In this document: in pieces, positions 2,758 through 7,238 of the stretch
Numbering within the stretch: position 1 is the stretch's first letter
Layout of the letters: the number at the start of each line of letters is the position of its first letter
Source of the DNA: Candidatus Thorarchaeota archaeon
GTDB lineage: Archaea; Asgardarchaeota; Thorarchaeia; Thorarchaeales; Thorarchaeaceae
Length of the DNA: 62,631 bases
NCBI GenBank assembly: GCA_011364905.1
Contig: RDNZ01000012.1
Location: forward strand, 1-62,631
Direction of reading: 5' to 3'
Notes under the pieces: generated by a model
Database searches by the model: none
What the model was told of the DNA's origin: nothing
Seen by the model: the letters and a program-made list of their open reading frames with translations, nothing else
Position numbers and translations under genes: made by a program

Positions 2758-3147
2758 TTGAGCGTAAGACTATCAAATAAGACCCTGGTTGTAATGGGGG
2801 TACTCATCATCTTTGGATGGTTCATGGCACAAGTGATTGTCAGCCTCCTCTTTCCAACCTCGACACTACCTTTTTCCATTCCTTCAATCGGGGCGGAGAT
2901 TGTCTTTGTTTCAGTGTTATTAGGCTTCACTCTCTATAATCAGAGGCTCCGTGACGAACGTTCGATACAGATTTCCGACAAATCAGCTCGTAATGGGTTT
3001 GCCTTCGTCCTTTTTGTGGTTCCGATGGCACTCATTGGTCTTTCCGCTACAGATGTTTCATCTGACGCTCTTCTTGCCCTAGTAGTAATATGGATTGGGG
3101 CTGTCTTCTTCGCAGGAATATCTGCTTTCTATTATTACTACAGGTAA
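2758..3147 (+). CDS. DUF2178-like membrane protein (paralog)
   Basis: RDERSIQISDKSARNGF motif, 4 TM segments, YYYYR end; GAGGTGA RBS. Confidence 0.7.
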   Translation: MSVRLSNKTLVVMGVLIIFGWFMAQVIVSLLFPTSTLPFSIPSIGAEIVFVSVLLGFTLYNQRLRDERSIQISDKSARNGFAFVLFVVPMALIGLSATDVSSDALLALVVIWIGAVFFAGISAFYYYYR

Positions 3148-3336
3148 CCAGGTCTAGACTGAAAATGGTAACTGATGGAAATCCTCCTGGCTTTGTTGCA
3201 ACATTTTTGAAAGTTGGTTGGATCACATAGCTGAAGTTGTGATCGATAAGGTCCAATGTTCTACTTTTGATTTTTGAGAATAAGCACAGTTATAATGTGG
3301 ATTTCAACCAGGAATTTCAAGCTAGGAGGGATTAGT

Positions 3337-3759
3337 TTGACCAAAAAACACAAAGATGACCAAGAAGCGACTCCACCCAGACCCAGCAGAGTACTTTTCG
3401 AATTCACTTCTGAGGATGAAGCGTATGTGAATATGATGCTGAAGAAATCAGCCAGACGTACTGTTCAGAAGCACAGAAAGGACGCGCCCTTACCTACAAA
3501 GAAACCCCCTTCCATTGATGACGAGTTGGATGAGATGCTCATAGAGGTTGAAAAGAAGATTGGTATCAAGTCTACAGCCACTGAGCCAATTAAGAACTGC
3601 CGCAAGTGCTATTTCTCCAGGTCATTTCGTGTCATTGGTGTGGATTGGTATTGTCATTGTGCCAATGTTGCAAGATCATCAGGAAAGGCAGGTTGGTCAT
3701 GGGTGCGTTGTGAGTCTAATCTGTCATGTTGGCGAGAACCTGATTATGACAGTCTCTAA
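3337..3759 (+). CDS. Hypothetical protein with C-terminal Cys-rich (putative Zn-binding) domain
   Basis: TTG at 3337 after GGAGGG; CRKC...YCHC...C...C C-terminus. Confidence 0.6.
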   Translation: MTKKHKDDQEATPPRPSRVLFEFTSEDEAYVNMMLKKSARRTVQKHRKDAPLPTKKPPSIDDELDEMLIEVEKKIGIKSTATEPIKNCRKCYFSRSFRVIGVDWYCHCANVARSSGKAGWSWVRCESNLSCWREPDYDSL

Positions 3760-3766
3760 AATGTGA

Positions 3767-3845
3767 TGGTAGCGGGTGGATGATTTGAACATCCGATCTC
3801 AGGGTTATGAGCCCTGCGGGATAGGCCTGGCTTCCCCAACCCGCT
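3767..3845 (-). tRNA. Initiator tRNA-Met(CAT)
   Basis: Reverse complement AGCGGGT-TG-GGGA...TCCC-G-CAGGG CTCATAA CCCTG-AGATC-GGATG TTCAAAT CATCC-ACCCGCT-A-CCA; A1-U72, three consecutive G-C pairs in the anticodon stem, encoded CCA. Confidence 0.96.
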
Positions 3846-3903
3846 AATGCTAAGGAAATTCTGCCTACGCGAGTTTTAAAGTTATTCGTAAGAACCGATG
3901 TAA

Positions 3904-4221
3904 TCAAGAGAATAGTCTTAGGTAATGTGTTGTCTCTACCTCTCTACCATCTTTCAGATAGACGGTGATATAGATTGTGAATTCTCCCCATCCGGCTGAT
4001 GATATAGAAAACTTGTCATTCTCATCATCAGAAGTTCGAATAGGATCGGGAAAAGTATCATGAAGTCGATATTCCACATAATCGACTAGAGCTAATTTTT
4101 CAGGAGATTCACCCATGAACACAGTCCACTTATACCAAGGAGTGTCTCTTTTTCCGAAAGTTCGTACCCCAACCTTCTTAGCAGTATTTCCGAACTTGAA
4201 ATCCAGTTTTTCAGGACTCAT
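3904..4221 (-). CDS. Stand-alone prokaryotic YEATS-domain protein (pYEATS)
   Basis: WTVF...VDYVEYRLHDTFPDPIR...FSISSAGWGEFTIYITVYLKDG...HYLRL; ATG at 4221 overlaps the upstream TGA. Confidence 0.85.
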   Translation of the reverse strand: MSPEKLDFKFGNTAKKVGVRTFGKRDTPWYKWTVFMGESPEKLALVDYVEYRLHDTFPDPIRTSDDENDKFSISSAGWGEFTIYITVYLKDGREVETTHYLRLFS

Positions 4222-4772
4222 ATTCGTCCACCTCCAGGTGTAGGCACAGGGTTTGAAACCTGTGAGAGTGTTTGGGGAATTGAACGTGGAACAAATGTTT
4301 TTGTCCTCCATTTCTGCCCTGTTGTATCAATGACGCAAATTCTAATCTGATCAGTCAATTTTACGAAGTCCGGCAGTGTATGATACCATCCGCCTTCTTC
4401 ATTGTTTGTCGGGGTGAAGATTATTTTCGTTTTCTTTCCAAGGCGTGGTTTTACCCATAGCTCTCCACTATCATCATCAAAGTCCACAATAGCATTCTTT
4501 GGAAACATCATTGTCACATATCGTTCGGCCTGCAGAATCTTCTGTTTAAGTCCCACAGCATCAGGTCTTATGATAGCAAGCACAAAAACGAGAAATATTA
4601 CTATTGCGATTATTAGGAATGGCATCCAGAGTTGTTCTGCACCAATTATCGCTGATTCCGCCAGAACTATAGCCTCTGTAACAAGAATTACTAATGTGAA
4701 TAATCCCAGTGGTGTTTTCACCGAATCTATAATGGAAACAGTGGTTTCTGATTTTTTACTTTCTGGAGTCAG
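4218..4772 (-). CDS. Hypothetical 2-TM membrane protein with C-terminal beta-rich soluble domain
   Basis: Two hydrophobic helices then a soluble domain; frame stays open upstream to a CTG at 4772 preceded by AAGGAGGG (ORF track start 4721). Confidence 0.7.
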   Translation of the reverse strand: MTPESKKSETTVSIIDSVKTPLGLFTLVILVTEAIVLAESAIIGAEQLWMPFLIIAIVIFLVFVLAIIRPDAVGLKQKILQAERYVTMMFPKNAIVDFDDDSGELWVKPRLGKKTKIIFTPTNNEEGGWYHTLPDFVKLTDQIRICVIDTTGQKWRTKTFVPRSIPQTLSQVSNPVPTPGGGRI

Positions 4773-5058
4773 ATATGTCCCTCCTTACGCTTGTAATGGG
4801 ACCTCTGCAATTTCACTATCATCTCTAGTGGGATTGATGTCATAGATAGTTTACAGATAGAAATTGGAAATCCATCTATCGTACAGTGTTCTTCTTCCCA
4901 CACGTTTGCATGAGGTCCCTACCGTCGCAAGAACAAAGACATACTTCTATAAAAAATGTTTCATCTTTTGATTAATTAGCGCAACATCTACTAGAAGAGT
5001 TAACATTTTTTAGGACTATTTATCAGATTCGAGCGAACTGCAAACATAGTGATTTCAC

Positions 5059-5085
5059 GTGGGGCTTTATGTTTCAAAGCCCCAC
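5059..5085. repeat. Perfect 10-bp inverted repeat / hairpin
   Basis: GTGGGGCTTT-ATGTTTC-AAAGCCCCAC. Confidence 0.6.
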
Positions 5086-5193
5086 AGACCCGAGTTCTGA
5101 TTCATTTATCGTAGACTGGATGTAGATATGCAATTTGCTGTAATTGAAAGGAAGTCTACCTACGAGAGTTTCAGAGCCATTCGTAGGTTTTGG

Positions 5194-6904: not shown

Positions 6905-7238
6905 AAGTCATTCTCTCCGAGGATAGAGTTGTAGTTTCTCTATATAAGGAGGTGTCGCGCAATACGATACCTCTAGGGTCTCATTCTGATTGACTCTGAG
7001 GCCACTCTAAATTGTTAGTAATACCTAGAACTGGATGTTGCTGCAGTGGAAGGAAAGGGAAGTAAAAAGGGGATTTTTGATACTTAACAAATGGCCACAA
7101 ATGACTAGTTGGCCGAGTGTAAATCCTTCAGCATAACATCTGTCATGTATCGTCTTTACTCATTATTGGGAAACCAATCAGACATTCGAGGTGATTACCT
7201 GCAGCTAGTTTTGTCAAGCAATGATAATCTCTTGTCTG

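Follow-up and report, generated by a model that had tools for sequence, protein, structure and literature searches.

A 62,631-nucleotide (nt) stretch of contig RDNZ01000012.1 from a Candidatus Thorarchaeota archaeon (in the following, the window) carries a cassette that is self-contained and horizontally mobile and that comprises two genes together with a promoter and a leader of its own. The second gene encodes a stand-alone YEATS protein of 105 amino acids (aa), P0001, and the first encodes a membrane protein, here called the partner, which combines two transmembrane (2TM) helices with a β-sandwich. Comparison with related loci shows that the pair is the split form of a “2TM hairpin, β-sandwich, pYEATS” protein. 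We tentatively favor, at slightly less than an even chance, a reading in which ligand sensing by the YEATS protein would be coupled to a membrane effector, an oligomer of the hairpin, in conflict or defense.

The first-pass annotation of the window, which was made from the sequence letters and a list of open reading frames (ORFs), had described a 105-aa YEATS protein with LHDTF and GWGEF motifs. Translation of the gene places these motifs at residues 53–57 and 77–81, and profile search, comparison with solved structures, and Foldseek were all positive for the YEATS fold. P0001 scores 77.8 bits against the prokaryotic pYEATS model (PF20305; cut-off, 26.9; profile positions 1–72 of 73) and 57.5 bits against the eukaryotic YEATS model (PF03366; cut-off, 22), which means that the prokaryotic model outscores the eukaryotic one by 20 bits. 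In a phmmer search of PDB sequences, Yaf9 (3FK3) ranked first (E = 3.9e-12, 50 bits) and GAS41 second. The AlphaFold model of P0001, based on an alignment of 23 relatives, has a pLDDT of 91.9. When this model was compared with the PDB using Foldseek, 101 matches with E ≤ 1e-3 were obtained, the top 30 of which were all YEATS domains, with Yaf9 and GAS41 as the best structural matches (probability of 1.0 and TM-score of about 0.7). Both the model and the structural search thus give the immunoglobulin (Ig)-like β-sandwich that defines YEATS domains.

In Yaf9, the acetyl group is held between Y70 and W89 and forms hydrogen bonds with the W89 amide, G90, and T69, while selectivity is tuned by E91 (PMC5758897). 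Figured on the alignment of the two proteins, T69, Y70, W89, G90, and E91 of Yaf9 correspond to T56, F57, W78, G79, and E80 of P0001, the pocket of which also includes H54, G77, and F81. The family alignment of 23 relatives shows no variation at H54, G79, and F81 and hardly any at F57, G77, and W78, and all five residues aligned with the Yaf9 pocket (T56, F57, W78, G79, and E80) are invariant or nearly so. Because the acetyl-contacting residues of Yaf9 all have aligned, conserved counterparts, the acyl-amide-binding pocket of P0001 is predicted to be intact and as complete as that of Yaf9, and the acyl-lysine pocket that the first-pass annotation had described for eukaryotic YEATS proteins is, at the level of sequence, conserved.

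The YEATS and partner genes are translationally coupled. As the first-pass annotation had noted, the YEATS ATG (4221–4219) overlaps the TGA stop codon of the partner (4220–4218), forming an ATGA, and it is preceded by a Shine–Dalgarno sequence (GGAGGTG) that, read in the frame of the partner, encodes the C-terminal Gly-Gly-Gly of this protein, in near relatives too. An identical 4-nt overlap is found at loci L018, L020, L021, L041, and L042. A longer YEATS ORF that starts from the ATG at 4311 (135 aa) was considered and rejected; it would overlap the partner by 90 nt, and since close homologues of P0001 measure 102–106 aa, the start was assigned to the ATG at 4221.

Using a hidden Markov model of the partner, a homologue was found directly upstream of YEATS in L001, L003, L008, L011, L018, L020–L023, and L026, the partner family having been sampled through word-indexed searches and one phylum scan. 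Loci L001, L003, and L011 belong to close relatives, L022 and L023 to another genus of the same family, and L018, L020/L021, and L026 to three other Asgard families. The L008 contig looks bacterial (PilZ, prepilin, and MFS genes), and its YEATS protein has an added PG_binding_1 domain. P0164 and P0166 were found independently as partner homologues, and in both cases a YEATS gene comes next, overlapping by 4 nt. In total, partner homologues were found in 11 distinct lineages, which comprise Asgard archaea and the one bacterial-looking lineage, and YEATS lies immediately downstream in every one of them. Seen from the side of the YEATS proteins, seven of the ten Asgard sequences over the cut-off have this partner, one lies behind another 2TM protein, and one is fused to a TM segment. 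Fusions were sought among the best 150 YEATS relatives, where several proteins of 290–310 aa combine the 2TM hairpin, the partner β-domain, and YEATS in a single chain. The score of P0147 is 41.5 bits across the whole partner model and that of P0049 is 24.7 bits; weaker matches were obtained for P0095, P0100, P0125, P0121, and others. Because the two genes are adjacent everywhere and fused elsewhere, there is strong comparative evidence that the window proteins would physically work together. The first-pass annotation had staked its two-component proposal on the pair recurring in other genomes; it does so at every related locus examined as well as in the fusions, and the proposal survives on this point.

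Other YEATS subtypes were seen among the Asgard loci. In L024 (778–1398 with 1417–1761), a YEATS subtype with WTWGMF instead of GWGEF lies behind a different 2TM protein, and in L025 (1468–2052), a TM segment is fused directly to YEATS in a 194-aa protein. In L022 (454–963) and L023 (2081–2521), the pair adjoins a small PLD-like (HKD nuclease-type) gene and unannotated genes, surroundings that may represent a small accessory or defense neighborhood.

The nearest bacterial pYEATS relatives of P0001, which were sought in a library of 1.8 billion representatives (1,465 matches), reach up to 58% identity and 108 bits, against 50 bits for Yaf9, and by this measure P0001 is nearer to bacterial pYEATS than to Yaf9. 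P0001 shares the LHxxF and GWGxF motifs of pYEATS (PF20305), as well as the F-x-F-x-N strand found at the N terminus of short stand-alone members. The window form is distinguished by being stand-alone, split from an uncatalogued 2TM/β-sandwich partner, and located in a repeat-bounded Asgard cassette. The YEATS half of the pair is a plain member of pYEATS. Compared with Yaf9 and GAS41 (PDB 3FK3, 6AXJ, and 5XTZ), P0001 has the same Ig-like fold and matching acetyl-lysine residues, but it is only about 28–32% identical, it has no C-terminal coiled coil or region for docking into NuA4/SWR1-type complexes, and the aromatic residues before its first conserved Trp are offset by one position from the eukaryotic F/H; it is, moreover, membrane-linked, accessory, and mobile.

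HeimC3_47440, the YEATS protein of Heimdallarchaeota LC_3, has been proposed to read histone tails, with a homologue being reported only in Bathyarchaeota (Henneman et al. 2018, PMC6136690). Going by its description, this protein shares with P0001 an Asgard origin and a conserved pocket, and the first-pass annotation had named a reader of acylated chromatin proteins as one of two alternatives. A eukaryote-like reader of acylated histones or other chromatin proteins would fit with this precedent, with Yaf9 and GAS41 being the best solved relatives, with the identical T/W/G/E pocket residues, and with a host that is an Asgard archaeon possessing a eukaryote-type actin (442 bits). We disfavor it and consider it very unlikely, given that the gene is obligately paired with or fused to a membrane protein and is present in only 1/28 genomes of the genus and 12/400 genomes of the phylum. 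The higher score of the prokaryotic model and the closer bacterial relatives also speak against chromatin reading, as do the bare 105-aa domain without a C-terminal complex-docking region and the sole histone detected in the genome (81% complete), which has 76 aa with an N-terminal stretch of eight residues and no lysine-rich tail.

The partner has two predicted TM helices (residues 4–26 and 33–51, numbered from GTG 4721) and an Ig/FN3-like β-sandwich at about residues 68–150 in the same numbering. The pLDDT of its model is 76 overall and 80–90 within the β-sandwich domain. A short cytoplasmic motif, ..SIIDSVKTPLGLFTL.., is present at the N terminus. Since the outer flanks of the hairpin are both basic and the six-residue interhelix loop is acidic, the partner probably sits in the membrane with both ends in the cytoplasm, and the β-sandwich would therefore share a compartment with the YEATS protein. 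In distant members, the most conserved part is the juxtamembrane/TM1 region (V-K/R-T/S-P-L-G-F-F-T-L plus a Glu in TM1), with an invariant Pro-Leu-Gly-Phe-Phe-Thr-Leu motif and a buried Glu in the hairpin; the conserved blocks of the β-domain are G-G-W..L-P and W..P-F. A fold search with the partner gave generic Ig/FN3-like matches alone (Z about 6). The weak match to a Kir-channel-like 2TM plus Ig layout was rejected, the interhelix loop having six residues and no pore helix. Taken together with the database searches described below, the partner belongs to an uncatalogued family.

ORF calling places the start of the partner at GTG 4721, and the reading frame upstream of this codon is open and conserved. 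We compared the nucleotide sequences of six lineages in this region. The arrangement TAGGAGGG-N6-CTG is common to the window, L001, L003, and L011, and in L022 and L023 an ATG stands at the position homologous to the CTG at 4772 of the window. In-frame stops occur just before the CTG in the window (TAA 4787–4785) and in L003, at different codons. On account of these three observations, the partner likely starts at the non-canonical CTG and has 184 aa, and GTG 4721 is the less likely start. The upstream 2TM protein of the first-pass annotation is thus recovered with both predicted helices, and its 4772 end is supported as the likely true start, a CTG.

The cassette was delimited by empty sites in three sister genomes (G345, G341, and G359), in which the tRNA-iMet flank (to 3893) joins the 3′ flank of a flavodiiron protein gene (from 5166). 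The GC content of the insert is 0.399, compared with a window mean of 0.446 (SD, 0.018), and 0.2% of equal-sized windows are as low, which bears out the AT-richer stretch noted in the first-pass annotation. A flanking repeat, which a generic repeat search had missed, emerged from the empty-site alignments. Its intact copy lies just upstream of the tRNA gene, and a degenerate second copy adjoins the 3′ end of the flavodiiron gene; most genomes of the same genus have a perfect single copy. In L001, four copies (3898, 5036, 6331, and 7080) bound three units, namely, a PALP enzyme gene, the partner–YEATS pair behind the same leader, and a gene encoding 158 aa. Other cargo occupies the same site in L034, L039, and L040, and the cargo of sisters in the interval between the flavodiiron and tRNA-iMet genes comprises the PALP enzyme, a 222–236-aa protein, and a 129–138-aa membrane protein. 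This interval is a variable hotspot in the genus, with units bounded by a 20–30-nt repeat.

The tRNA-Met (CAT) gene that anchors the site lies 58 nt downstream of the YEATS stop codon. It has an A1:U72 pair and three G:C pairs (GGG/CCC) closing the anticodon stem; these are marks of archaeal initiator tRNA, and the gene was therefore read as tRNA-iMet, the identity given in the first-pass annotation.

A single YEATS gene is present in the window genome (3.08 Mb, 81% complete), which is the only genome of its genus with a pYEATS match; Rpb7 and L15e mark it as archaeal. At the level of the family, 4/85 genomes have a match, and 10 of the 12 matches in the phylum scan exceed the cut-off; a weak Pfam match in G350, of the same genus, proved spurious and not related to P0001. 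At least six Asgard families have YEATS genes, and almost all of these genes adjoin a membrane element or are fused to one; in the other Asgard families, the contexts of the pair are unrelated. Plasmids gave a single match, a distant cyanobacterial pYEATS. We call the cassette accessory and mobile because of this patchy distribution, the empty sites, the flanking repeats, the AT-rich insert, and the array in L001. With integron-like and tycheposon-type tRNA arrays, the site shares units bounded by copies of the anchor flank, variable content, empty sites, and the lack of a recombinase seen nearby. It differs in that the repeat is the promoter-proximal 5′ flank of tRNA-iMet rather than the 3′ end of the tRNA, and in that one of its units has two genes in an operon with a leader of its own. 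No recombinase or integrase was found among the neighbor genes scanned, the genome as a whole not having been searched for one.

The leader of the cassette is about 90% identical to that of L001, and blocks of conservation extend to L003 and L011, the YEATS proteins of which are 62–70% identical. A BRE/TATA-like box, TTTTTATA, is located at about 4955–4948 and is conserved as GAAACA-TTTTTATAG. The leader folds better than shuffled sequences (z = −3.9), and the predicted consensus structure has a long-range GGGACC/GGTCC stem and a pyrimidine run that pairs with the Shine–Dalgarno sequence, with three pairs showing compensatory change among four sequences. For a set of four sequences, this structure and its masking of the Shine–Dalgarno sequence are suggestive, and the leader could be a cis-regulatory RNA. 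In Rfam, tRNA was the sole match in the region, and the leader has no family. We do not count the 44-aa ORF within the leader (4769–4903) as a gene, since the L001 sequence differs there by two 1-nt indels. Together, the leader and the CTG start suggest that the membrane subunit is made in small and controlled amounts.

Tight control of a small membrane protein, through a weak CTG start and a leader predicted to mask the Shine–Dalgarno sequence, could also be expected of a toxin–antitoxin-like addiction pair that stabilizes the cassette, with a holin-like 2TM toxin and YEATS as its neutralizing binder, and the location of two translationally coupled genes in an integron-like array would suit such a pair. 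We find this quite improbable, as stable fusions into one polypeptide in many organisms would be unusual for a toxin and its antitoxin, the strictly conserved YEATS pocket is not needed in a mere plug, and the membrane protein comes first in the gene order.

In the mechanism that we tentatively favor, the cytosolic YEATS protein would dock on the cytoplasmic β-sandwich of the partner, where it may serve as a sensor for protein acyl-lysine or a chemically similar acyl or acetamido compound. Ligand binding would shift the oligomeric state of the conserved TM hairpin, and the hairpin oligomer would then perturb the membrane. The weak CTG start and the masking leader may keep the membrane subunit scarce. 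The pair would be a module of the abortive-infection or conflict type, acquired by the archaeon as an accessory gene. A sensor plus a membrane effector is favored because of the domains to which pYEATS is joined in its bacterial relatives, namely, TIR, TIR-STAND-TPR, patatin, metallopeptidase, FGE-sulfatase, and TPR. A SLATT_1 gene also neighbors pYEATS at one bacterial locus. In addition, pYEATS has been listed among the ligand-binding sensors of conflict systems (bioRxiv 10.64898/2026.10.19.760177). The assignment to defense would rest on the cassette being mobile and patchily distributed and on the effector-type domains fused to bacterial pYEATS.

As regards architecture among the database proteins, P0142, P0144, P0046, and P0064 combine pYEATS with a patatin phospholipase, an FGE-sulfatase, an M10/astacin-type metallopeptidase (with tandem YEATS), and TPR arrays, and many top pYEATS matches are tandem double YEATS proteins with signal-peptide-like N termini.

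Gene pairs in Verrucomicrobiae, Nitrosomonas, Gallionella, and Burkholderiales (L012–L015) consist of a gene for a TIR plus a β-rich domain, followed by a gene for pYEATS plus TIR or TIR-STAND-TPR. Their layout is that of the window, with an upstream effector-type module that has a C-terminal β-rich domain and a 4-nt overlap with a pYEATS-first gene, but the effector is TIR-like there and a 2TM hairpin in the window, and the window YEATS protein has no TIR. In Pfam searches, a TIR domain was absent from both window proteins, versus a TIR_2 match of 44 bits in L013. The partner β-domain was also tried as a counterpart of the C-terminal domain of the upstream TIR-type proteins and was not accepted as such; BLASTP gave no match, and hhalign gave an E-value of 0.4 and then 0.01 at a probability of 4%. 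Homology of the two β-domains is only suggestive. Another point of comparison is SLATT, a cell-killing 2TM effector in CBASS and in type VII Thoeris ThsH (bioRxiv 10.64898/2025.12.03.692087). In SLATT systems, as in the window pair, a small membrane module of two helices is coupled to a cytoplasmic part that senses a ligand. The two differ in that the partner had no match to the SLATT profile at E ≤ 10, the sensor is a separate YEATS protein, and no nucleotide-signal synthase accompanies the pair.

Several results weigh against a sensor–effector pair in defense. PADLOC-DB 2.0 gave no family at E ≤ 10 for either window protein, and searches of the partner against Pfam, PADLOC, NCBIfam, and PHROGs gave no family, the ESM Atlas being empty too. 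Phage genomes and IMG/VR contigs contained no match to the gene. The neighborhoods of the Asgard pairs hold housekeeping genes (LeuRS, Dak2, ParA-like, APH kinase, and nitroreductase) and are not defense islands, an association that the first-pass annotation had proposed to survey, and the neighbors of the pair in the window are a flavodiiron protein and a tRNA. The TM hairpin may serve merely as an anchor, and the nearest bacterial-type relatives carry PG_binding_1 fusions, a hint that the ligand may be envelope-related. The two-component sensor of the first-pass annotation therefore stands in part: the YEATS fold, the pocket, the coupling, and the co-occurrence agree with it, and the lack of a PADLOC match and of a viral record does not.

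These points bear directly on a different role, an accessory physiological one outside immunity, as a non-lethal, membrane-proximal sensor or adaptor, in which the hairpin would anchor a YEATS protein that binds an acetamido or acyl-amide ligand from envelope metabolism (acylated lipid head groups, N-acetyl-sugar carriers, and acylated membrane proteins being possible ligands) and recruits or regulates something else. That the closest non-Asgard relatives fuse PG_binding_1 to YEATS beside the same partner would be explained in this way, as would the housekeeping neighborhoods without a match to a defense model, and the β-sandwich of the partner is a generic Ig/FN3-like interaction domain. We regard such a role as the main alternative, less likely than the sensor–effector pair, since the distribution is extremely patchy and cassette-borne, the other fusion partners of the family are effector enzymes, and the TM1 region with its buried Glu is the best conserved part of the partner, beyond the needs of an anchor. 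Returning to the sensor–effector pair, an extended version of it can be envisaged, in which the pair would be an immune module, present in Asgard archaea and bacteria, that disrupts the membrane when its YEATS pocket binds an acyl-lysine or acetamido mark arising in virus infection; this mobile, membrane-linked sensor would also have been the prokaryotic stock for eukaryotic chromatin readers of the Yaf9/GAS41 type. We consider this version unlikely.

Coordinates of the features discussed in the text, with the evidence for each
Feature	Position	Strand	Evidence
Stand-alone pYEATS/YEATS protein P0001, 105 aa	3904..4221	(-)	Pfam, phmmer, AlphaFold model, Foldseek, family alignment
ATGA stop/start overlap; Shine–Dalgarno GGAGGTG at 4235–4229	4218..4221	(-)	Sequence
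Partner protein, 184 aa from likely start CTG 4772 (167 aa if GTG 4721)	4218..4772	(-)	ORF, comparison, model
AGGAGGG (4785–4779), six bases, CTG start (4772–4770)	4770..4785	(-)	Nucleotide comparison of six lineages
Conserved cassette leader, BRE/TATA-like box, 5′ untranslated region of roughly 150 nt	4773..4960	(-)	Comparison, folding
Inserted cassette, 1,272 bp (leader, partner, YEATS)	3894..5165	(-)	Empty sites in sisters, GC
tRNA-Met (CAT), initiator type, anchor of variable site	3767..3845	(-)	ARAGORN; Rfam tRNA, 57.4 bits
Intact boundary repeat CCTACGCGAGTTTTAAAGTTATTCGTAAGA, just upstream of tRNA-iMet, contains TATA-like box of the tRNA	3864..3893		Empty-site alignments
Degenerate second repeat copy, 23/30 identical, adjoins 3′ end of flavodiiron gene	5159..5188		Empty-site alignments

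Some further features were seen around the site. At 7184–7283 of L001, ARAGORN calls a 100-nt “tRNA-???”, the orthologous tRNA-iMet being longer than that of the window, and an insertion is also present in the tRNA-iMet junction region of L036 (G341). This suggests an intron in the tRNA-iMet of relatives that the window copy lacks. On the far side of the tRNA gene, the window has tandem paralogous genes for small membrane proteins of 120 and 129 aa (2382–2744 and 2758–3147, both on the plus strand), which are 31% identical and share an RxxDER..QI motif and YYY(Y)R ends, with weak Pfam hints of CyanoTRADDas_TM and DUF6442. The 129-aa membrane genes downstream in L003 and L011 were considered as homologues of the gene at 2758–3147; they are not homologous and represent another variable unit of the site. 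A putative ORF of 161 aa (3274–3759, plus strand) stops 8 nt before the tRNA gene and encodes a Cys-rich C terminus (CRKC...CHC); it matched no Pfam family.

In the literature searched, we found no paper describing the partner family, the obligate pairing or fusion, or the cassette setting, and no experiment reported on a prokaryotic YEATS domain. The locus defines a compact 2TM, β-sandwich, and YEATS unit, which occurs split or fused, and its study could reveal the acyl-amide signal that prokaryotic YEATS domains sense. Among the integrase-less cassette arrays of this genome, the cassette itself is a two-gene example with its own regulatory leader. In eukaryotic chromatin, YEATS domains have a central part in reading acyl-lysine, and an Asgard YEATS protein has been cited as a hint of histone-mark reading in archaea (PMC6136690). 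The Thor-type protein and several other Asgard YEATS proteins are accessory, horizontally moving, membrane-tethered, and of the bacterial pYEATS kind, and this calls for caution in counting YEATS as a chromatin signature protein.

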